Sequence record: NC_106597.1
DNA: 64,000 nt
Direction: 5' to 3' (one strand)
From: Escherichia phage BB1
Shown: positions 44,728 through 55,886 of the stretch, piece after piece
How the letters are laid out: the number at the start of each line of letters is the position of its first letter
Numbering within the stretch: position 1 is the stretch's first letter
Translations under genes and position numbers: made by a program
Notes under the pieces: generated by a model
What the model was told of the DNA's origin: nothing
The model's input: only the letters and a program-made list of their open reading frames with translations
Database searches by the model: none

Positions 44728-45066
44728 TTGGATGGTGTACTGGCAGAAAACACTATGCAAGAAAATGAGAAGCCCTTCCAGGAACCCATGCCACTTGAGA
44801 TGAATCCTAGGGCAAAAGCAGTTCATGATGCAATTAATGAAATCATTCAGGATGTCATACAAGACACTATGGAAGATGTAATGGGAACATCATTTCTTCT
44901 AGAAGAATCTGGATTTGATGAAATGATGGATCTCGTAGGAACAGTTATAATGGTTCGTGCAATTGCTAGAATATTCCAAATACCACATTTACGGGAGCAT
45001 GAAAGACATGTCAAACGGCAACAAAAGAAAGAACAGGCGCGGAGAAGTGTACGAAGCGTGGATTAA
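44728..45066 (+). CDS. hypothetical acidic protein
   Basis: ORF; start uncertain (ATG 44728 or 44755). Confidence 0.35.
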   Translation: MDGVLAENTMQENEKPFQEPMPLEMNPRAKAVHDAINEIIQDVIQDTMEDVMGTSFLLEESGFDEMMDLVGTVIMVRAIARIFQIPHLREHERHVKRQQKKEQARRSVRSVD

Positions 45067-45245
45067 CATTTACGGATTTGGCTTTGTATTATTCCTAATC
45101 TTCGTAGGTTTTTGGTTAGCAGCTATGGCGGGGTGGATCTAATGGAATGGGTAATTATTGCACTACTGGGGATTGTGATTATTGGGCAGTGTATTTTAGA
45201 TAATCACTTAGCTAGAATTGAAACCTTACTATCGGAGAAACGTAA

Positions 45246-45440
45246 ATGATGGAAGTGGCAGTTACACTAATAGTAATATTAGTCTGGGTAATCCTCATTG
45301 CCTCTCGTATCGTGTATATTCGCCTAAAAACTCTAGAAGCCCAGGTAAAACAACAACAAGTTGCGCTAGAAAAGCTAGTACTACTGCAACGGTGTGATAG
45401 CACCCGTATTCTGCAAATTGAGAAGGAATTAGATGTTTAG
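45246..45440 (+). CDS. small membrane protein
   Basis: N-terminal hydrophobic helix then coiled-coil-like tail. Confidence 0.35.
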   Translation: MMEVAVTLIVILVWVILIASRIVYIRLKTLEAQVKQQQVALEKLVLLQRCDSTRILQIEKELDV

Positions 45441-45678
45441 TATTGTAATTGCTTTTATTATCGGGATACTCGCTGGAGTTTTCGGGACGACTGCGGCAAT
45501 CAATAAGCATCGGGAATATATTGCGGGAGTGACGCGGGAGATTGCGGAAAGGGAGCGGAAGTTTGACGAGAAACGTGCGGAGTTTGAGCGGAAGTGGTCG
45601 GATGGATCTCGGGCGTCGCGGAAGAGATTCCGTGAGTTCAGACCAGAACACAGGTTTGATGACCCTTCTATGCGCTAA
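45433..45678 (+). CDS. small membrane protein
   Basis: N-terminal TM helix, basic C-terminus. Confidence 0.4.
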   Translation: MFSIVIAFIIGILAGVFGTTAAINKHREYIAGVTREIAERERKFDEKRAEFERKWSDGSRASRKRFREFRPEHRFDDPSMR

Positions 45679-45843
45679 TTTGGAAATCTCGAAATTTCAT
45701 AAGATTACACATGGAGGTGTGCCCAGTGGGTCGGGGGAGAATACTTAGTCTGCTAACCGCCACCCCCCGTTACTATTAGCAGGGTAATTGTTTCATCCTG
45801 CAACCATTTTAATCGCAGGATGAAATTATTTCAACTTTAATTA

Positions 45844-46578
45844 TTACGCAACTTTTAATTTCTCAATATATTGTTGCGGGCTGCAACTATATTCTGCGCG
45901 TTCTTCCTCGGTCATACCTTCCCAGCATAGTTTTAAACGGTCAGCTAGGAATTGATAATCATTATCATCGTCGAGCGATTCATCAATAAAGGTTTCACCT
46001 ATTAATGTTACACCTATTGATAGAATATCATTAACGGCTTGCGCGTCCAGCGTTTTAAATCCGTATGATGCTGCCGCCGATAGCACACCTTTATGATCAT
46101 CAATCATTGTAAAATCAGCGTTCGGATATAACTGTTTAAATAATTCAAAATAATAAGATTTATATACTGCGTCTTTGCTGTGGTATATTTCGCTAACTTT
46201 ATCAGCTTTAAAATATTTATGCAGTGTGTCGCGGGAAAATACGCGGATATTGCTATTTCCTCGACCTCGCAAGCCTTGTTTGCGCAAGAAATAATAGTCC
46301 GACTTACTCATCAATCGAGCGGTGCAAATAATGTTTAAAGTATTTGCATCATTCATGCACTGGCGCATATATTCAACCAATGGCAATAAAGTATCTTGCA
46401 TTATTAAATGATGTTTGCAGGCTTCATTTTTATATTTATTTAAATCTAAATTGCCCTCATTATCAAAGCAAGGCGCTACACGATGGAAAGAATTAACGAT
46501 AGTGCCGTCTAAATCCCAAATCATGACGCGGGAAATATGCGGGAAATTACGGAAAGAATTAATAATAGATTTATTCAT
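45844..46578 (-). CDS. dmp: HAD-family 5'-deoxynucleotidase (Dmp-like)
   Basis: HAD motif I near N-terminus (MIWDLDGTIVNS); 244 aa; GC-richer codon usage. Confidence 0.7.
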   Translation of the reverse strand: MNKSIINSFRNFPHISRVMIWDLDGTIVNSFHRVAPCFDNEGNLDLNKYKNEACKHHLIMQDTLLPLVEYMRQCMNDANTLNIICTARLMSKSDYYFLRKQGLRGRGNSNIRVFSRDTLHKYFKADKVSEIYHSKDAVYKSYYFELFKQLYPNADFTMIDDHKGVLSAAASYGFKTLDAQAVNDILSIGVTLIGETFIDESLDDDNDYQFLADRLKLCWEGMTEEERAEYSCSPQQYIEKLKVA

Positions 46579-46657
46579 TTGTTACGTTCTCCATTAAAGG
46601 GATTTAGTTATTTCAGCATTACCCGCTATTTATAAGCGGGTAATAATAAATTAACTA

Positions 46658-47053
46658 TTAAAGACCATAAGCCAACGCATCGGCAATAAAACTAACATCC
46701 TCACCTGATACGCTGGAACGAATACCAGCACAAGTATATACTTTTGCACTGATCAATTGATCATCAAGGCAAGCGGGGCAAGGCGCGACAACTGCAAAGG
46801 CAAGGCCGGATTTTACGGCGTCGATGATAATCGTTTCTTGCTTCACCGTATCAACATAAACACCTTTTGCTTTAATATGACTGGTTAGTTTGCCCTGCGT
46901 ATATGCGAATGTTGTAACCTGTAAAGCGTCATTGAAATCTAATAGATCATCAATAACATGCCCCGCCTCGACGTGGTAACGTTCGCCGTTAGAATAAACC
47001 AGAACAATTGAGGATTGAGCGCGGTCAAATGGGATGCGATTAGATTTAGCCAT
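46658..47053 (-). CDS. pre-early hypothetical protein
   Basis: 131-aa ORF with GGAG RBS; preceded by GC-rich hairpin. Confidence 0.5.
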   Translation of the reverse strand: MAKSNRIPFDRAQSSIVLVYSNGERYHVEAGHVIDDLLDFNDALQVTTFAYTQGKLTSHIKAKGVYVDTVKQETIIIDAVKSGLAFAVVAPCPACLDDQLISAKVYTCAGIRSSVSGEDVSFIADALAYGL

Positions 47054-47089
47054 GTTTATAACTCCAGTTATTTTAATAAGGAATTTAAT

Positions 47090-47347
47090 TTATTTGATAA
47101 TAATCTGCATTTGGTACGGCGTTAATTCACCGTTTACGGGTAAATTATTATCACTCAACCATTCATAAAAAGCGTCATCATCATCAAAAGGAACAACATC
47201 ATTATCACGATAATCGACCGTAATAATACCATCAGTATTAGTTTTAGCGGCTAGGATAGGCCCGAAGCTGTAAACTTTATCGGATTCCATTTCATCCGGT
47301 GAAATGAATGCTTTTTCGTCCAATGTTTTGGGTAGTGTAACTTTCAT
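47090..47347 (-). CDS. pre-early hypothetical protein
   Basis: Start moved to ATG 47347 (AGGAG 7 nt upstream); track ORF begins at TTG 47380. Confidence 0.45.
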   Translation of the reverse strand: MKVTLPKTLDEKAFISPDEMESDKVYSFGPILAAKTNTDGIITVDYRDNDVVPFDDDDAFYEWLSDNNLPVNGELTPYQMQIIIK

Positions 47348-47401
47348 TTTTTGACTCCTGTAATAGCGGCTATATTTCAAGCCGCTAGGGGAATAATTTA
47401 A

Positions 47402-49066
47402 TTATGCGAAGAATTTACCATTCTTAAAGTCGATCAAAGTACGCTGACCGTTTGCATAGGTAATTAAATGCGTTTGCGTCCAGCTTGACGCGCCAACGTT
47501 GTAACCCATATCCAGACTACCAGCTACTCCAGCGGTATAAACGCCACCGTAAATGCTAGCGGTATGGGTGTGTCCCGTGTTTAGCTTGCCCAATTTCTTA
47601 AACTGTTTAGGATTGCCACGACTGCCGTTAATGCCGTTGTGACCGTGTACACCGCACTCAATGCCTGCAATCTTGAAAGATTGGTCAGTGGTTAGGAAAA
47701 TGGCGTTAAACTCACAACCTGCAACCTTGCGCAGCGCATAATCTAGCACGTTAAAAGTATCATCATGATCACTGATCGCCGCGTAAATTGCAGCATTCAG
47801 GCGGTGATATAGTTCGGCGTTGGCTGGATCGTCTTTGATGTTAGCATTACGATCATCTAACCAGCGGGATAGCGCCAAATCGTGATTAGATTCAACAATG
47901 ATTGTTTGAGAGAAATCACGTTCCATTGATTCCAGCACGCGCCCCGTATCGATAAGATCATCCAGAACTTTATCACGTCCAGCGGCATACTGTTTTGCTA
48001 GGAATACACCGGATGCACGGTTATGATGATTGCGCGATGTAAAATCATGCACGTCATGAATAAACTGATATTTAGGTTTAAGAATATCAAGCAAGCTATT
48101 TTCGCCAGCCCATGACGCAACGGCACAATCATCATCTAATTTTTCGGCGTGAATATCGCCATATTGCAAGCCTAAAACATGCCCCGACGTTTCATAGCAT
48201 CCAGCAGGAGTAGCGCAAACATTCAGATCATAAAACACCCCGCTTTCATCCATCGTTTCAAGCTGGCGAACAAAAAATTCCCCGTCGTCGTCGAACTCAA
48301 CAATAAGCGCACCGAAGTTATGCAGCGCCTCGGCCTTTTGTCCTGCTTTCTGCTGAATGTAGTTTTTGAGCGTTGCCGTTCCGGTTGAATACATACGGCG
48401 CACTACTTCACCTTTTAAAGCTGGCACGCTTTCAGCGGTAATTTTAGCGTGACCAATTGCCAGCCCTTCAATATTTAAAGCCGTTGCAGTTTCTGCAAAT
48501 CCTGAAAGCGGATAGTCTGCGGTAGGCAAAACATTAATTTCAGCCATGAAAGCAAAACGGCGGTTATTTAAAAACACGTTTTTGCTGCAAATATATTTAT
48601 CAAATGCGGGATCGTATTTGATACCGTCTGCACCTTCTCCATTCTGGAAGCCGTTTTTATTATAAATATACTTAGAAACAAGCAAATCAGCACCGATATA
48701 TTCAGCGAATTTTTCCAGACTTGCTAAAAAGTTTTTATGTGGGAAAGTATTATTCTGAATCGACGTAATAATAAAGCGTTTACCCTGTTTTACTTCCCAT
48801 TGCTCAACCGTACTAGAAACAATCCCCGCCGCTTCTGGGCGCTCATCGTTTTTAATGGCTTTTGCTACTTTTGCCGCTTTCGGTTTAGCTGGTTTATTTG
48901 CTTCCAGCCAGTCGCAGATAGCGGTTGAATGCTTCGTTGTATCGTAGACCGCTTTTGATATATCGTCGCAGACTTCCAGTTTAGTAGCGCGCAGACGTTT
49001 ACCATAGAAATTAAAGTCAGCGGCCATTTTCAGGATAACGGTTTGTTTTTCTGCGGAAATAATCAT
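47402..49066 (-). CDS. A1: A1-like pre-early protein with metallophosphoesterase motifs
   Basis: 554 aa; GDIH, SNHD and GHTH motifs in calcineurin-like order. Confidence 0.65.
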   Translation of the reverse strand: MIISAEKQTVILKMAADFNFYGKRLRATKLEVCDDISKAVYDTTKHSTAICDWLEANKPAKPKAAKVAKAIKNDERPEAAGIVSSTVEQWEVKQGKRFIITSIQNNTFPHKNFLASLEKFAEYIGADLLVSKYIYNKNGFQNGEGADGIKYDPAFDKYICSKNVFLNNRRFAFMAEINVLPTADYPLSGFAETATALNIEGLAIGHAKITAESVPALKGEVVRRMYSTGTATLKNYIQQKAGQKAEALHNFGALIVEFDDDGEFFVRQLETMDESGVFYDLNVCATPAGCYETSGHVLGLQYGDIHAEKLDDDCAVASWAGENSLLDILKPKYQFIHDVHDFTSRNHHNRASGVFLAKQYAAGRDKVLDDLIDTGRVLESMERDFSQTIIVESNHDLALSRWLDDRNANIKDDPANAELYHRLNAAIYAAISDHDDTFNVLDYALRKVAGCEFNAIFLTTDQSFKIAGIECGVHGHNGINGSRGNPKQFKKLGKLNTGHTHTASIYGGVYTAGVAGSLDMGYNVGASSWTQTHLITYANGQRTLIDFKNGKFFA

Positions 49067-49156
49067 AGTAATAAAACTCCATTAAAGGGATTAGATTAAT
49101 AACGGCAATATTGCCAAATATAACGCCTCAAATAATAGGCGTTATAATTTGCAACA

Positions 49157-49354
49157 TTAATTTAAAGGCACTAGGCTAGAACTAACACCACAAGCAACGG
49201 CAGCGATAAAACAAAGCAAGCCCAAACGTTTTGCTAACTTAGATTTACGTTTAAAATAATATGAATCTAAATCATTTTGAAAATAAGCAAATAATAATGA
49301 GGCCGCCATAATAAACAAGCCTAGAATTAATGATTCAGTAGGAAAGAAAATCAT
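49157..49354 (-). CDS. small membrane protein (two predicted TM helices)
   Basis: 65-aa ORF with conserved upstream RBS element. Confidence 0.4.
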   Translation of the reverse strand: MIFFPTESLILGLFIMAASLLFAYFQNDLDSYYFKRKSKLAKRLGLLCFIAAVACGVSSSLVPLN

Positions 49355-49445
49355 TTTTTAAAACTCCTGATTTAAGGGAAGAAAATAACTATCGCTAAAC
49401 AGTTATATTATTGCCCCCTCACTAAAAGGGGGCAAGGTATAACTA

Positions 49446-49853
49446 TTATTCGCCTGCGGCTTGTTTTACTTCATCGGCAACGCCTAACAGTTGCGCTACT
49501 GCGTCCAGCGTTTCAAGTTTTGCACTTTCCAGACTTGCCAGATCGTCGGCGTCTTTGATAATGCCGGAATCAATAGCATGTTTAGCGATAACGCGCACAT
49601 AGTGAGCTTTACGCACAGAGCTACCGCCACCAACTTTACGCGGCTTATCGCTTTTTTGATAGGCTTTTGCACTGGTCAATTTTGAGCGAACGGATACAGG
49701 GGAAGCCGCGCCAACTGCTTTTGCAATCTCTTTTAAACCGTCGCTATTTGCGAAATCTAAACCGTTTTCATTAATTAACTGCTGATACATGGAAACAGCT
49801 TTCTGAGTGTTTTCTTCATTCCATGCGAATTTTGCGGTTTTAACGTTAGTCAT
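49446..49853 (-). CDS. putative DNA-binding protein (A2 candidate; shares motif with ORFs 300..710 and 3436..4203)
   Basis: 135 aa; basic stretch KPRKVGGGSSVRKAHYVR and HTH-like motif; conserved upstream RBS element. Confidence 0.4.
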   Translation of the reverse strand: MTNVKTAKFAWNEENTQKAVSMYQQLINENGLDFANSDGLKEIAKAVGAASPVSVRSKLTSAKAYQKSDKPRKVGGGSSVRKAHYVRVIAKHAIDSGIIKDADDLASLESAKLETLDAVAQLLGVADEVKQAAGE

Positions 49854-49951
49854 GATATAAACTCCTATTAGTTTAATTTAAGGGATTAGATTAACTTAAT
49901 GTTAATCGTTATATCCCCCTGAAATAAGGGGGATATAAAGTTAACACTAAA

Positions 49952-50203
49952 TTACAGAACAGCTTCCCATTTTTCGTTACGTTGAACAACCTTTACAACG
50001 TCGCCGGATTTAACGCGAACGTTAAAAACAGGTTTGCCGTTGTTACTACGTTCATTTTCAACATATACCGCGTCGATTGTATCAAACGGCATAAGCGCCG
50101 CGCCTTTAATACGTTCGGCCTTTCCGGTTAATTCATCCGTTTTAGTAACGAAAGGAATAAAAACGGATTGACCAATTTTTGGCGCGGTAATAACGTTTTG
50201 CAT
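49952..50203 (-). CDS. pre-early hypothetical protein
   Basis: 83-aa ORF with GGAG RBS; downstream of a large palindrome. Confidence 0.45.
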   Translation of the reverse strand: MQNVITAPKIGQSVFIPFVTKTDELTGKAERIKGAALMPFDTIDAVYVENERSNNGKPVFNVRVKSGDVVKVVQRNEKWEAVL

Positions 50204-50227
50204 AATATAAACTCCGAGTTATTTGGT

Positions 50228-50278
50228 GGATTGTTCCGCATTACCTGCTAGAAAGTAGCAGGTAATAAGTAACAATCC
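50228..50278. repeat. 51-bp compound palindrome
   Basis: GGATTGTT-CCGC-ATTACCTGCTA-GAAAG-TAGCAGGTAAT-AAGT-AACAATCC. Confidence 0.6.
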
Positions 50279-50406
50279 GCTCGCCAGTATAATCGATTTA
50301 AAGAACTCCACGTAGGCCGCTATATCCCAGTTAGGGGGCGGGATGCATTATGGTAAGCACCGACCGTCAAATTTTATCAAGTTATCGCTCTTATCGAACT
50401 GGGTAC

Positions 50407-50435
50407 ATCTTAAAACCTATCGGCTAGGTTGTCAA
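50407..50435 (-). promoter_or_regulatory. candidate sigma70 promoter for leftward pre-early transcription
   Basis: Minus strand -35 TTGACA (50430-50435), 17-bp spacer, -10 TAAGAT (50407-50412). Confidence 0.3.
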
Positions 50436-50635
50436 GCGGTTTTTTGCAGTTTTTTATGATTTTCTTTCAAGTCAATCATAATATTTCGCCAGATCATTTC
50501 TAAACCTTGCTGGCGACCTTTCTTGTACTGCGTGAATCTATATTTTACTGATCTTTGTGCTACTGTCAACAAGTTTTTTGTTTTGCTATCTAGTGCCTTA
50601 ATAGGCTTGCCAGTGATCAAAAGCGTTTGTTTCAT
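50432..50635 (-). CDS. hypothetical basic protein
   Basis: 67-aa ORF, first gene of the leftward operon. Confidence 0.35.
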   Translation of the reverse strand: MKQTLLITGKPIKALDSKTKNLLTVAQRSVKYRFTQYKKGRQQGLEMIWRNIMIDLKENHKKLQKTA

Positions 50636-51082
50636 ATCGTCGATTCCTTATAATGAATAAGTTTACCGCCGATAGGCTTTAAGATGTACCCAATTTTTAA
50701 AGAGCGTGGCGGTAAACTTCCCGCCGTGTAGTTCGTCATTGCCGCCCTACGAAATAAATAATAGGGGATTCCCGAAAATGGCGCAACCTTATTTTTGTAA
50801 AGAAACGTAAAGACACGATCCACCGGACGGCGTGCGGCGACGGCCTAAAATTAAAAGAAACGGGCGCGCGAATACCACAAAACATAGCAAATAGGCAAGT
50901 AATTTTTTCATTTATATTTACTTTGCCCTACTTGACAAAACCTAAAAAGCTCGTGACAGCGATAAACGGCTTATCCCTTTATGATGAGATGGCTAAAAAC
51001 TTCATCGCGTTCTAGGGCGTTTTAGGCGCATTCTAGCCTTGTTGATAACTTATCCCCAGAAGCAAAAATGAAATTTTCCTAG

Positions 51083-51115
51083 TTATCCACTTGACTTTTA
51101 TTTTCCAGTGGATAA
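51083..51115. promoter_or_regulatory. inverted pair of DnaA-box-like 9-mers
   Basis: TTATCCACT ... AGTGGATAA separated by 15 bp. Confidence 0.5.
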
Positions 51116-51398
51116 CTACTTATTTTATAAAATAAATTAATTGACTTTTATCTGTTAGTATGCATCGGAAAGATAGCAGACTAATAATTGCTAGGATGAT
51201 AATCATGCTGGTGGATTGTAACGGCTTAAATTATTAGCAGACTATTAATCACGGAAAATCTCATTAGCCAACTAACTATTTCATGATATATAATATACTT
51301 ATAAATTAATGAGAAATAATAATTATAATAAATAATAACTACAGTAAATAATAACTATAAGAAACTATCGGCCTAAGTGAGAACCACTATCATTTAAG

Positions 51399-51505
51399 TT
51401 ATTCACAACGTTATCCACAGCACAAAATAATTTGACACGATAGGCGGCGATATAAGGACTTTTGCACAGACTTATCCACAGGTTATTCCACTGTATAAAT
51501 ATACA
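51399..51505. promoter_or_regulatory. three direct DnaA-box-like sites plus CTGTATAAATATACA motif
   Basis: TTATTCACA, TTATCCACA (51411-51419), TTATCCACA (51472-51480), motif at 51491-51505. Confidence 0.55.
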
Positions 51506-51773
51506 AGGTAAAAAGGTAGTGTTAACAACTGCAATCAATTTTGAGCGGCCTAAATCGCATTCTAACGAGCTAAACGCTGCGGAGTAATATTAAAGTAAAG
51601 CCTTAATGCGGCGGCCTGGTGGCTTCACCGTGTTTTGCTCTTTATTACACCGCTGCGCGGTTAGCATAAAATTAGACGCTAGGCAAGGAAAATAAAAAGG
51701 TAAAATAATATTTGCCTATGCTAGAAAATTACCTTTATCATTCACTCACCGATTAACGAGGGAGGCCGAACAA

Positions 51774-52769
51774 ATGAGGCTGTATAAACCAGATAACGCA
51801 ACCGTCTTAAAAGGTGCATTGCGCAACCTGCTGGAGGGTAGCAAGTCAACCAGCATTAAACATTTTATTAACAAGGCTGAAACTATTCATCAAAACTTTT
51901 TTGATGATTATGACGGTTATGATATAGATAGTTTTCTACCACTATATAAGCAAGGGGCAACGCTTGTTTTATATAACCGTGATTGCCATATCTTTACAGG
52001 CAGGGGAGCGGGGCCGGATGCCGATTTTATTATTGCGCAGGGCAATAATATTGTTGCGTATCATAGCAATTCAGGCCGTCAATCATTTAATATAAATGGT
52101 TTTGAGCTTATTGGACTTGATCTGATAAATGGACTTTCTAGTATTGAGGGATTTTTAAATGTTATCTGGAAGTATTTACCCGCTGGATGGCATAAGCCGG
52201 ATAATGACGGATCTCAATATACCGCTATAATGGCTTTTGATGGCGACGGTAATTTTTTGTTACCACGGGAGCTATACCCGTATATTTATGATGGGGATAT
52301 TGAAAGCGCTGGTTTTTCTTTCTGGAAAGATGAAGATCAGATTATTGACAGTATAGAAAACCATGCTGTAAATTCTAACACTCAAACTACTGAAAACAAA
52401 GGAAAAAATACCATGACTAAGATTGCTAACATCGTTGCCGCTAATAAATCCGCTGTTGTAAATGCTGCAAAACTGGAGGCGGGTAAAATTGCATTAACTC
52501 AAATCACGAAAGTAGCGGCTAAAAAAGCGCCGTTTATGATTAAAGGTTATATTGATACGCCGATTGGTCGTGTAGTGATCGCTAACCTGCTAAGTGTAGC
52601 GGTTGACCAGTACGCACCGAGTAACCAAAAGGCGAAAGCGGTAGCAGGTGCAGCTATGGAGGCGGCAATGTTGGAAATGGTGCAAAGTTTTAACATCGCT
52701 GAAATGATTGATGAAATGGTAAAAGGTATTGATATTTCTACTTTTACCACTAGCACCGAAAGCGAGTAA
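51774..52769 (+). CDS. hypothetical protein
   Basis: 331-aa ORF with GAGGGAGG RBS; followed by GC hairpin. Confidence 0.5.
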   Translation: MRLYKPDNATVLKGALRNLLEGSKSTSIKHFINKAETIHQNFFDDYDGYDIDSFLPLYKQGATLVLYNRDCHIFTGRGAGPDADFIIAQGNNIVAYHSNSGRQSFNINGFELIGLDLINGLSSIEGFLNVIWKYLPAGWHKPDNDGSQYTAIMAFDGDGNFLLPRELYPYIYDGDIESAGFSFWKDEDQIIDSIENHAVNSNTQTTENKGKNTMTKIANIVAANKSAVVNAAKLEAGKIALTQITKVAAKKAPFMIKGYIDTPIGRVVIANLLSVAVDQYAPSNQKAKAVAGAAMEAAMLEMVQSFNIAEMIDEMVKGIDISTFTTSTESE

Positions 52770-52834
52770 TAATAACTAGCGGGGATTATTTCCCCGCTTT
52801 ACTATTCCCTTGTTAACTAATAGGAGGCTAATAA

Positions 52835-53329
52835 ATGGCTGAGGAAAAATACGGCTTCTCGCTAGGGGAAGTGAGCACGGCTAAACACGATATGATCATT
52901 TTAGTCGATTGTCATACAGGTTATTGCGGAGAAGGTTGGACGGAGGAACATTTTGTTCCTGCTGGTACGGATCTGGACGCTTTCGCTCATGAAATGGCTG
53001 TTGATAATGCTTCTCGTTTTGGTAGCGATGGCTATGAAGACGAAGAAACTGGCGAATGGTATGAAAATGAAAACGTATATGCAAGCCTTTATCATTATCA
53101 ATTAAGTAAATCCGGCACATATGTAAACGGCGGCGATCCTATTAATTCCGTCATGAAATTAATTATTAAACATGGTGGCGTCGAGATAATTGATAACAAA
53201 GCGGTAATATATGCAAACCGATTAAAACAGCTTATTTATATTCCTGATAGTACCCGATGGGAGGAATATGCTGTTTTGCATGACGAATTAAAACGATGTT
53301 TCAATATTGAAGCCTTACAAGTAGTCTAA
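52835..53329 (+). CDS. hypothetical acidic protein
   Basis: 164-aa ORF with AGGAGG RBS; followed by terminator-like hairpin. Confidence 0.5.
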   Translation: MAEEKYGFSLGEVSTAKHDMIILVDCHTGYCGEGWTEEHFVPAGTDLDAFAHEMAVDNASRFGSDGYEDEETGEWYENENVYASLYHYQLSKSGTYVNGGDPINSVMKLIIKHGGVEIIDNKAVIYANRLKQLIYIPDSTRWEEYAVLHDELKRCFNIEALQVV

Positions 53330-53342
53330 TGTAAAGTTTTGT

Positions 53343-53371
53343 AAAGGTCGCCTTTTATGGTGGCCTTTTTT
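53343..53371 (+). terminator. terminator-like hairpin with G-U wobbles
   Basis: AAAGGTCGCC-TTTTAT-GGTGGCCTTT then T-run. Confidence 0.4.
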
Positions 53372-53434
53372 GTTATAATGCCTTTACACCAAAACGGTGG
53401 ATTGAAAATTTTCCCAAAAATTTGGAGGCTTAAA

Positions 53435-53665: not shown

Positions 53666-53714
53666 TTAATAACGGGGCGATACTTTCGCCCCGATAACTA
53701 GGAGGCTATCACAA

Positions 53715-53864
53715 ATGGTTATTTTTCGATCTATTTTAGCGGGTATCTTGGGCGCTATTTTATCGTTATTTGCGATAGCTTTCGGCGTTCACGCTGTTAT
53801 TATTGGCGCTGGCATTGCCGTATTTTCTTATCTGTTAGGCTGCATGACTAGTAAAGGAGAATAA
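53715..53864 (+). CDS. small hydrophobic membrane peptide (49 aa; not in supplied track)
   Basis: ATG preceded by AGGAGG; translation MVIFRSILAGILGAILSLFAIAFGVHAVIIGAGIAVFSYLLGCMTSKGE. Confidence 0.45.
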   Translation: MVIFRSILAGILGAILSLFAIAFGVHAVIIGAGIAVFSYLLGCMTSKGE

Positions 53865-54944: not shown

Positions 54945-55053
54945 ACTGTATAAATATACAGTAGGATAAGCTGTGGATAAGTCTGTTAATAACGCCTCAA
55001 AATGGCTAGGATTCTGTCAAGTCAAATCGTGCTGTTAATAAGTCTGTGGATAA
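54945..55053. promoter_or_regulatory. two DnaA-box-like sites in opposite orientation plus palindrome ACTGTATAAATATACAGT
   Basis: Palindrome 54945-54962; TGTGGATAA at 54972-54980 and 55045-55053. Confidence 0.55.
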
Positions 55054-55079
55054 CTTAAATAACAGTGTTTCTCACTTCC

Positions 55080-55260
55080 ATTCTTAAATGCAAATTATTA
55101 TCATTTGTATTTCACTATCTAACTAATAATCATTTCACTTTTTAAATGAGAATCGTTTCACTTCCTGAATAATTTTCATTTCACTTTTTAAATGCGAATG
55201 ATTCTCATTATCATTCCGCTTTTTAAATGCGAATTATTATCATTATCATTCGCATTCAGG
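55080..55260. repeat. degenerate tandem repeats of a ~30-bp unit containing TTTAAATG(A/C)GAAT
   Basis: At least four copies read directly. Confidence 0.55.
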
Positions 55261-55264
55261 CTAG

Positions 55265-55280
55265 CAGGGCAATTGCCCTG
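55265..55280. repeat. perfect 16-bp palindrome CAGGGCAATTGCCCTG
   Basis: Read directly. Confidence 0.6.
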
Positions 55281-55287
55281 CGCTTTT

Positions 55288-55886
55288 GTGCAAATCCGAC
55301 ATTGCTCCATGGGTGTTACGTGCGGGCGTGTATGTGCGAATCCGACAATTTTTGGTAGTGTGCAAATCCGACCCGAAAAATTTTTATAGTGTGCAAATCC
55401 GACAATGAATTTTCCTAAAAACTCCAGCAATCACGAACTGCGTTCGAATCCTGTGGGGTATGTGCAAATCCGACATGGTTTTTCTAGGATTAAGATGTGC
55501 GAATCCGACAAGATTTTTGTGACTTCGATTGGAGGGTGTGTGATTGTGTGAGTTTGGGGAGAAGTTGAAAGAGTGAGAGAAATTTGGGGGAACTGCGGGA
55601 GGGGTGCATGTTTGGTGCGGAGCACCTGATTTGCGGGGATTTTGTGGAAGAGTTGAGAAGATTTGGGTTAATTTGAGATAAGTGCAGATAAAGTAAAATT
55701 TTATTAGCTAAATGGGGCAAAATAGCTTGACAAGTGAAAATTTCTGTGGCTCCAAAAACTCAGGCAATCATGGGCCTTCGGCCCGAAATAATGCTGCCGT
55801 TTTCAGGAGATTATATGTTCCTAAAAACTTAGGCAATTGTGCAAATCCGACCAGTTTTTAAACTCTTGTCAGTGTGCAAATCCGAC
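55288..55886. repeat. eight direct copies of 13-mer GTGC(A/G)AATCCGAC, irregular spacing
   Basis: Copies start near 55288, 55334, 55360, 55391, 55462, 55497, 55839, 55874. Confidence 0.7.
55500..55700. other. C-depleted G/T/A-rich tract (~200 bp) with strong strand asymmetry
   Basis: Almost no C on + strand; GGGG/GTGTG runs. Confidence 0.5.

Follow-up and report, generated by a model that had tools for sequence, protein, structure and literature searches.

RNA hairpins, leader boxA sequences and a C-rich ribosome-binding-site element in the leftward pre-early operon of a T5-like phage suggest RNA-level control

The pre-early genes of phage T5 are switched on within seconds of DNA entry and off minutes later, and how this is achieved is a decades-old question; the mechanisms of class switching in T5 have been stated to remain unknown (PMC7472727). 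We analysed a 64,000-nucleotide stretch of Escherichia phage BB1 (NC_106597.1), hereafter the window, in which the region 45844-50431 is, judged by homology to the annotated T5 genome, the leftward pre-early operon of the first-step-transfer DNA. Its genes run on the minus strand in the order T5.008, T5.007, A2, T5.005, A1, a gene at the T5.003 position, T5.002 and dmp. Three conserved cis elements, confined to the first-step-transfer DNA, were defined: boxA sequences in the leader, intercistronic hairpins selected for their structure, and a C-rich element linked to ribosome-binding sites, here called the CCC element. Since the conserved hairpins are not terminators and the C-rich signal, present before most of the pre-early genes, stands before no other gene class, the operon seems to possess an undescribed layer of RNA-level control of its own. 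The three elements make the control of pre-early genes directly testable.

A sequence-only reading of the window had described the same layout at nearly every minus-strand junction, with a stop codon, a GC-rich stem-loop lacking a U-tract, an AT-rich element with GGAG, and the start codon. Every hairpin that it listed proved real. An inverted-repeat search recovered those at 46619-46643, 49104-49115, 49120-49145, 49411-49435, 49909-49938 and 50228-50278, and the hairpin at 47364-47387 was read directly in the sequence and then folded. Hairpins occur at six of the seven junctions, in the leader (J0) and at the 3' end of the operon (J7), with the 36-nucleotide (nt) T5.003/T5.002 junction (J5) the sole one lacking a hairpin; all junctions but J5 are predicted to fold far better than shuffled sequences (z = -4.0 to -5.6, with only 0-1 of 200 shuffles as good). 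The helices begin 0-3 nt past the stop codon, and their GC-rich cores continue through AU-rich lower stems, giving mostly 18-24 base pairs (bp).

On the minus strand, the leader hairpin J0 (50228-50278, 18-23 bp) is built in two tiers and lies just upstream of the T5.007 ribosome-binding site. J1 (49895-49951, 21-24 bp, GC core 49910-49937, z = -4.98) begins at the stop codon. J2 (49400-49445, 19 bp, core 49411-49435) has an unrelated 9-bp hairpin as its counterpart in T5, and J3 (49104-49156, 18-21 bp, core 49120-49145) is accompanied by a mini-palindrome, GGCAATATTGCC, at 49104-49115. At J4 (47354-47392), a C-run, TTCCCC, lies upstream of an 8-bp hairpin (47364-47387), which is followed by GGAG (47357-47354). 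The hairpin-free J5 (47062-47083) comprises a degenerate element, TTCCTTATTAAAATAACT, and GGAG. J6 (46605-46657, 21-24 bp, core 46619-46643, z = -5.55) exists in relatives as four non-homologous alleles, and J7 (45786-45830, 16-24 bp, no U-tract) follows dmp, with the point to which the T5 left end aligns some 65-110 nt away.

The absence of a U-tract was confirmed by a terminator scan; an intrinsic terminator should show about 5 U or more among the 8 nt that follow its stem. No main hairpin was flagged, the tails being A-rich or mixed, and the scan picked up just the small palindrome at 49116-49103. In the rest of the window, 36 gene junctions are shorter than 25 nt, and the stable intergenic hairpins are mostly typical terminators of 6-16 bp with a U-tract. 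The pre-early hairpins are a class distinct from these terminators: they share with them a GC-rich stem-loop after a gene, but in the window and the T5 clade the helices have no U-tract and are about twice the length of the same genome's terminators. T-tracts do follow some junction hairpins of Pectobacterium-like, Proteus and Vibrio relatives. A search of Rfam returned two chance matches to microRNA precursors below threshold and nothing else.

Homologous junctions from 40 related loci reveal selection on these structures, as the sequence-only reading had proposed to check by covariation. Eight hairpin families contain 18 compensatory pairs, with 93-100% of alignment cells paired. J1 is paired in 98.9% of cells and has four pairs with changes on both sides, a level that none of 500 shuffles reached; one of its pairs is seen as CG, AU, GC and UA, and its loop sequence varies freely. 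J6 contributes one AU/GC compensatory pair, split 7 to 7. The remaining 13 pairs come from J0, J2 (two alleles), J3 and J7 (two alleles), where 97.7-100% of cells are paired: J0 has two, with 100% of cells paired, J3 has three, and the two allele families of J7 have three and two. At J2, J6 and J7, different phages carry unrelated hairpins at the identical position, and the conserved trait is a hairpin at that place in the mRNA.

Each helix includes several G·U pairs, and in 104 of 139 alleles folding favours the sense over the antisense strand, the mean difference being 2.3 kcal/mol. Covariation, G·U pairs and the sense-strand bias together exclude a DNA cruciform or an antisense RNA, and selection maintains the hairpins as sense-transcript structures. 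J7 is conserved although its template DNA ends about 65-110 nt further on, which argues for a post-transcriptional role. As a separate observation, J1, J2 and J3 each have a segment further downstream that looks like the 5' arm of the lower stem and is predicted to be able to pair with the 3' arm in its place; examples are GAUUAAC with GUUAAUC and a set of arms that are 80% complementary (49398-49447 and 49376-49415, minus strand). Such alternative pairing would be favoured by a ribosome terminating on the upstream gene.

The second element lies at the ribosome-binding sites. The motif TCCCTTWAAT occurs four times in the 64 kb, where 0.43 matches are expected and none of 100 shuffles reaches four. 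All four copies are on the minus strand, before dmp, A1, T5.005 and A2, and each sits 0-13 nt 5' of a GGAG Shine-Dalgarno sequence. The element reads TAATCCCTTAAATTAAACTAATA before A2 (49862-49888, with GGAG) and CTTCCCTTAAATCA before T5.005 (49364-49381, with GGAG); before A1 (49077-49092) and dmp (46589-46604) it reads AATCCCTTTAAT and is fused to GGAG. The sequence AATCCCTTTAATGGAG is exact before both A1 and dmp, and one 16-mer occurs at two junctions. The claimed regularity of the layout holds for the hairpins and less so for the motif, which in the window is strict at four of seven junctions, degenerate before T5.002 (TTCCTTATTAAA) and absent before T5.007 and T5.003. T5 itself has the element before all seven genes, and its J5 site reads AAATCCCTTATTAAACTAATTGGAG.

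The CCC element is specific to pre-early genes and deeply conserved. When the window was combined with the remaining genome of its closest relative (about 104 kb), TCCCTT..GGAG..ATG was found six times: before four leftward pre-early genes, before one rightward pre-early gene (52806), and once by chance, within a gene on the opposite strand. In the window, 6 of 14 pre-early genes have the looser pattern T[CT]CC[CT]T upstream, as against 2 of the 55 other genes (p = 5.6e-4). Across eight genomes, whose hosts belong to seven genera ranging from Escherichia to Proteus, a broader form of the element stands before 36 of 44 leftward pre-early genes; in the window it stands before 6 of the 55 other genes. 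Variants with the form WAWYCCCYTWAW, 0-15 nt, GGAG were found before leftward pre-early genes in Klebsiella, Erwinia, Pectobacterium-like and Proteus phages, whose A1 identity falls from 73% to 42%; the signal is faint in the Vibrio phage. At J1, ATCCCTTAAATTAA is invariant in 17 distinct sequences whose hairpin loops vary. In the Pectobacterium-like locus L038 the element overlaps the A1 stop codon and no hairpin is present, which assigns it to the downstream ribosome-binding site and not to the hairpin.

The element is G-poor, lies within about 20 nt 5' of the Shine-Dalgarno sequence, and is predicted to be single-stranded, being unpaired in minimum-free-energy folds. Its predicted duplex with 16S ribosomal RNA (rRNA) has an energy of -10.1 kcal/mol, compared with -9.1 ± 1.5 kcal/mol for shuffled sequences, 28% of which are as good, and a 6-mer match to 16S nt 451-456, beside the target of the epsilon enhancer, occurs at chance frequency. 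The exact 15-mer ATCCCTTTAATGGAG was found in 91 stretches of IMG/VR; its matches outside T5-like phages are all in unrelated contexts, mostly with no upstream hairpin or start codon at ribosome-binding-site distance, as by chance.

Several identities for the CCC element were considered and rejected. It matches no Rfam family. It is not a boxA variant, as it reads (A/U)UCCCUU(U/A)AA versus G(C/U)UCUUUAA and true boxA copies coexist with it. A promoter -10 hexamer does not fit the Shine-Dalgarno geometry, the missing A at position 2 or the variable spacer. Pairing with the Shine-Dalgarno sequence itself (UCC with GGA) would give only 2-3 bp, unstable in the folds, and covariation is impossible there. 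Mimicry of the hairpin 5' arm, with pairing to a G-run, fits J1 and J2 and fails at J3 and J6. An RNase P-type hairpin plus NCCA was rejected on the helix-to-CCC spacing, which ranges from 0 to 24 nt.

The third element, boxA, is found in the leader, where three minus-strand promoters can be placed. The first, an unannotated sigma-70 promoter at 50758-50786, consists of TTGCGC (50786-50781), a 17-nt spacer and TATTAT (50763-50758), with an A/T-rich block upstream; across 13 sequences of the T5 clade and Erwinia KEY, the hexamers stay unchanged and the spacer is variable. A P-H22-type promoter (50542-50569; TTGACA, 16 nt, TAAAAT; 11 of 12 consensus positions) and a P-D/E20-type promoter (50407-50435; TTGACA, 17 nt, TAAGAT) are near-consensus pre-early promoters homologous to those of T5, the former to an annotated one. 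About 55 nt downstream of the TTGCGC/TATTAT promoter, a hairpin, GGCGGG..CCGCC (50725-50708), is followed by an rrn-type boxA, GCTCTTTAAAAAT (50705-50693). A boxA-like sequence, GTTCTTTAAAT (50296-50306), lies in the T5.007 5' untranslated region between the P-D/E20-type promoter and the J0 hairpin, 17 nt upstream of J0, and is conserved in the J0 alignment. A third copy, GCTCTTTATTA (51637-51647, plus strand), faces the rightward operon with a small hairpin before it and is conserved in the T5 clade.

The boxA copies of the window match rrn boxA, which in Escherichia coli rrnH reads TGCTCTTTAACAA; the stretch at 50705 and 50306 reads GCTCTTTAA. Both leader elements match the consensus on the sense strand, lie between promoter and genes, and are conserved. 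All Demerecviridae loci examined keep a boxA, its conservation reaching from the T5-like phages of Escherichia to those of Proteus and Vibrio, and Proteus phage 1 has five copies, each after a TATAAT-like -10. The boxA elements are present and conserved; our literature search found no paper connecting boxA with T5 or its pre-early genes, and no annotation of it. None of boxA, the junction hairpins and the CCC element is annotated in T5 records or was found in the literature, as far as it could be searched, and neither Davison's 2020 preprint nor the 2026 A1 preprint mentions hairpins, terminators or ribosome-binding sites.

Further features were seen around these leaders. In the Pectobacterium-like and Proteus phage loci L038 (1727-2566), L039 (1690-1800) and L166 (2573-3290), boxA copies are spread over short leader open reading frames, and many junction hairpins carry T-tracts, resembling terminators that would need antitermination. 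The T5.007 5' untranslated region of about 200 nt (50204-50400, minus strand) is highly conserved and contains a C-rich block, CCCGCCCCCTAACTGGGATATAGCGGCC; paired substitutions there, TGC..GCA versus CAC..GTG, suggest more structure upstream of the second boxA. The upstream boxA had escaped the sequence-only reading, as had the similar design of the rightward operon and the motif without a hairpin in L038.

Published RNA sequencing of the Tequintavirus Bas33, whose junction spacings are like those of the window, provides gene-level values at 20 min after infection (PMC13250531, supplementary table; we took the value column to be "max group mean", a header that is not confirmed). Along the operon the values are 1232 for T5.008, 12199 for T5.007, 5207 for A2, 1171 for T5.005, 4925 for A1, 1143 for T5.003, 4425 for T5.002 and 2218 for dmp (PMC13250531). 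Abundance is thus non-monotonic, with fourfold rises and falls between adjacent cistrons. This pattern misfits one uniformly stable polycistronic RNA or pure attenuation, and fits segmental processing with differential decay, or internal promoters.

We favour, at about even chances, a model in which the leftward operon is organised like the T7 early operon, with boxA, non-terminating junction hairpins and autonomous ribosome-binding sites. Strong host promoters would be followed by an rrn-type boxA that presumably loads the host Nus antitermination complex, and the Nus-loaded RNA polymerase would read through to the end of the DNA. The long sense hairpin that starts at each stop codon, having no U-tract, would not terminate transcription and may instead mark off mRNA segments and protect them, by blocking 3' exonucleases or by serving as a processing site of the RNase III type. 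Each downstream cistron would then recruit ribosomes itself through GGAG and the single-stranded, pyrimidine-rich CCC element. The latter most plausibly serves for standby binding or enhancement, with ribosomal protein S1 as one example of a partner, and would help pre-early mRNAs to compete with host mRNAs. A pyrimidine run flanked by A/U is the type of sequence that S1 binds, and it is found in leader enhancers. Processing or stabilisation sites coupled to a shared initiation signal had been suggested by the sequence-only reading: selection on the sense RNA, a pre-early-restricted motif tied to ribosome-binding sites and the misfit of Bas33 with a uniform transcript speak for it, while we infer the cleavage or stabilisation, the nuclease, the enhancer activity with its partner and the loading of Nus.

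The T7 early operon and the pre-early operon are both the first-expressed operons of virulent coliphages, transcribed by host RNA polymerase from tandem strong promoters. In T7 (NC_001604, L163) a boxA, GCTCTTTAACAATCTGG, is found at 813 (813-829), between the A1-A3 promoters and the R0.3 RNase III hairpin, so that the order of boxA, hairpin and first ribosome-binding site is 813, R0.3 and gene 0.3 in T7 and 50306, J0 and 50203 in the window, with like spacing. In both operons nearly every gap holds a GC-rich hairpin with a lower stem, and the next ribosome-binding site follows within 10-40 nt; the intercistronic RNase III hairpins of T7 (R0.3, R0.5, R1, R1.1, R1.3) have a GC-rich upper stem of 9-10 bp above the lower stem. 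The T7 R sites differ in belonging to one sequence family, AAGGUC..GGCCUU UAUGAU, whose large internal loop leads to a single cut, whereas the T5-type hairpins share no sequence with them or among themselves, are more regular, and in two cases are just 8-9 bp. The comparison suggests that the unrelated virulent coliphages T7 and T5 converged on one first-operon design.

Other known systems resemble single parts of the operon. Repetitive extragenic palindromic (REP) sequences and bacterial interspersed mosaic elements, as at malE-malF, are non-terminating intercistronic stem-loops that keep 3' exonucleases off the upstream segment and make mRNA levels unequal within one operon. The T5-type hairpins are likewise intercistronic and non-terminating, and unequal levels are consistent with Bas33, but they have no REP consensus, a sequence of their own at each junction and no Rfam match. 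Known A/U- or pyrimidine-rich enhancers 5' of the Shine-Dalgarno sequence include the epsilon element of T7 gene 10 (UUAACUUUA), the atpE leader and S1 sites. The CCC element is like these in being single-stranded, G-poor and next to the Shine-Dalgarno sequence, and has CUUUAA in common with epsilon and AACUGGAG with the atpE leader; it differs in its CCC core, which is foreign to them, in having no above-chance pairing to 16S nt 458-466 or elsewhere, and in its restriction to one temporal class. With the boxA of rrn and lambda nut sites, bound by NusB/NusE, the CCC element shares C-CUUUAA of GCUCUUUAA and a place after a hairpin, as rrn boxA follows boxB; it reads (A/U)UCCCUU, however, and not G(C/U)UCUUU, and genuine, perfectly conserved boxA copies occur separately in the operon's leaders, which makes the CCC element a distinct one.

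Several observations weigh against this T7-like model. Although the window helices J0, J1, J2, J3, J6 and J7 span 16-24 bp, around the RNase III criterion of about 20 bp or more in two tiers, J4 with 8 bp and the T5-type J2 with 9 bp fall short of what this enzyme needs. Regular 22-bp helices, moreover, would be cut on both strands, removing the protective hairpin, and the hairpins share no sequence with T7 R sites. The CCC element has neither above-chance 16S complementarity nor a specific tie to S1, and in Bas33 the genes that have it are not systematically more abundant as RNA. The Bas33 data are gene-level and from 20 min, and internal promoters or library bias could explain them. Finally, several junction hairpins of Pectobacterium-like and Proteus phages carry U-tracts, implying that the ancestral role may have been termination.

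A bolder version, which we regard as improbable, is that pre-early operons mimic an rRNA operon. Here boxA-loaded antitermination would give fast, Rho-resistant transcription uncoupled from translation, the naked transcript would be cut or protected at the hairpins, and the CCC element would be read by a dedicated partner. This partner, S1 or a phage or host factor, would drive the burst of pre-early translation and could offer a handle for the later shut-off.

The hairpins could alternatively act on transcription, as pause sites or weak terminators lacking a U-tract that boxA/Nus-modified polymerase overrides. They would then set the polarity and timing of pre-early expression, and loss of antitermination could aid shut-off. 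In favour of this, a boxA lies downstream of every leftward promoter, T-tracts follow several junction hairpins in L038, L039, Proteus phage 1 and Vibrio D124, and dmp, the last gene, is 2.3-fold below A2 in Bas33. Within the T5 clade, however, no hairpin has a U-tract, and the Bas33 abundance climbs again past J3 and J5, which is impossible by attenuation alone. Termination would also be needless in the left repeat, where J7 is conserved near the physical end of the DNA, and ribosomes terminating at the stop codon would melt a lower stem that begins there. We consider this explanation unlikely, on a par with mimicry of an rRNA operon.

Somewhat less probable again is that the CCC element is the site of a class-specific trans factor, a translational repressor or an endoribonuclease, phage-encoded or modified, that would stop pre-early protein synthesis in the A1-dependent shut-off. 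In T4, RegB and RegA act at early ribosome-binding sites, and the cis signal of the window likewise adjoins GGAG in the ribosome-binding sites of a single temporal class. The exclusiveness of the element to pre-early ribosome-binding sites, its deep conservation across phages of different hosts and its lack of 16S complementarity all suit such a factor, and an A1-dependent shut-off of pre-early genes is recorded both in the T5 annotation and in PMC7472727. The difficulty is the factor itself, for which no candidate is known: we detected no homologue of RegB or RegA, nor any other RNA-binding or ribonuclease domain, in the small pre-early proteins, whose matches are domains of unknown function (DUFs) or nothing, and A1 is now regarded as a DNase (preprint 10.64898/2026.04.02.716235).

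The junction modules might instead be mainly recombination boundaries that promote gene shuffling, with little direct role in expression. The T4 promoter-stem-loop cassettes, which have been proposed to promote gene shuffling, are comparable in that stem-loops flank exchangeable genes. The gene at the T5.003 position is such an exchangeable cassette: in many relatives, T5 among them, homology ends at 47345-47409 and picks up again at 47079-47101, and these edges coincide exactly with J4 and J5. Further breaks against relatives fall at J0, J1 and J2, and the identical 16-mer at two junctions could be read in the same sense. Mosaic boundaries in phages fall at gene borders anyway, however, and T4 cassettes have an early promoter each, which is missing here, the operon containing only weak promoter matches at 9 of 12 positions, the chance level. 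Compensatory changes and sense-strand G·U pairs reflect selection on RNA structure and not on DNA identity, and the CCC element keeps a fixed relation to GGAG and ATG even inside coding sequence. We think it quite improbable that recombination is the main role.

Least probable of all, and by our estimate very improbable, is action at the DNA level: the features could form cruciforms or bind proteins on the first-step-transfer DNA, or the TTTAAT/TTAAAT part of the motif could be the -10 of internal promoters. Record AY692264 has a "putative promoter" across the T5.005/A1 junction, TTGCCG, 16 nt, TTTAAT can be read at that junction in the window, and Bas33 RNA rises at A1 and T5.002. A transcript from that -10, however, would start at or after GGAG and have no ribosome-binding site, the hexamer does not contain the critical A at position 2, and the spacer would be 22 nt in T5. 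A promoter scan of 45000-52000 gave 32 sites, a modest excess over the 21 expected from shuffled sequence, with none over the CCC element, and each G·U pair would turn into an A·C mismatch in a cruciform or on the opposite strand.

The assignment of the operon rests on homology. Over 5 kb, the region shares 96% identity with Escherichia phage phiAPCEc03 and 80-93% with several hundred T5-like phages, by which the window is placed as a T5-like phage (Tequintavirus). By homology to T5, the minus-strand genes are T5.008 (50635-50432), T5.007 (49952-50203; 83 amino acids (aa), DUF7177), A2 (49446-49853; a 135-aa DNA-binding protein), T5.005 (49157-49354; a 65-aa membrane protein), A1 (47402-49066; 554 aa), T5.002 (46658-47053; 131 aa) and dmp (45844-46578; a 244-aa deoxynucleoside-5'-monophosphatase). 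The swapped cassette at the T5.003 position (47090-47347; 85 aa) is non-homologous to T5.003 of T5. The left genome end of T5 aligns with about 45720 of the window, as do those of several complete relatives. Transcription of the leftward operon hence heads towards the physical end of the injected DNA, and the window comes from an assembly in which the terminal repeat was collapsed or permuted. The part of the window left of 45720 is the other end of the unique region. For phage engineering these features are relevant in that deletions in the operon are already being designed against polar effects.

The rightward pre-early operon shares the leftward design, to a lesser degree. On the plus strand, a hairpin at 52778-52798 is followed by a CCC element, TATTCCCTTGTTAACTAATA, and AGGAGG before the gene at 52835 (feature 52778-52827), and a second hairpin, CGGGGCG..CGCCCCG (53673-53693), has no U-tract and lies directly before AGGAGG. 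Viewed over the wider intervals 52770-52834 and 53666-53716, the arrangement is a U-tract-less hairpin followed by TATTCCCTTGTTAACTAATAGGAGG, with the second hairpin abutting AGGAGG.

The neighbouring DNA shows further features on the plus strand. Within the rightward operon, AAGGTCGCCTTTTATGGTGGCCTTTTTTGTTATAAT at 53340-53380 resembles a true intrinsic terminator with a -10 hexamer immediately after it. Two DnaA-box-like sequences, TGTGGATAA, occur at 54972-54980 and 55045-55053, and repeat arrays, TTTCACTTTTTAAATG.GAAT and GTGCRAATCCGACA, occupy a large non-coding stretch at about 55100-55520. The stretch from 54972 to 55520 corresponds to the region of the annotated T5 injection stop signal.

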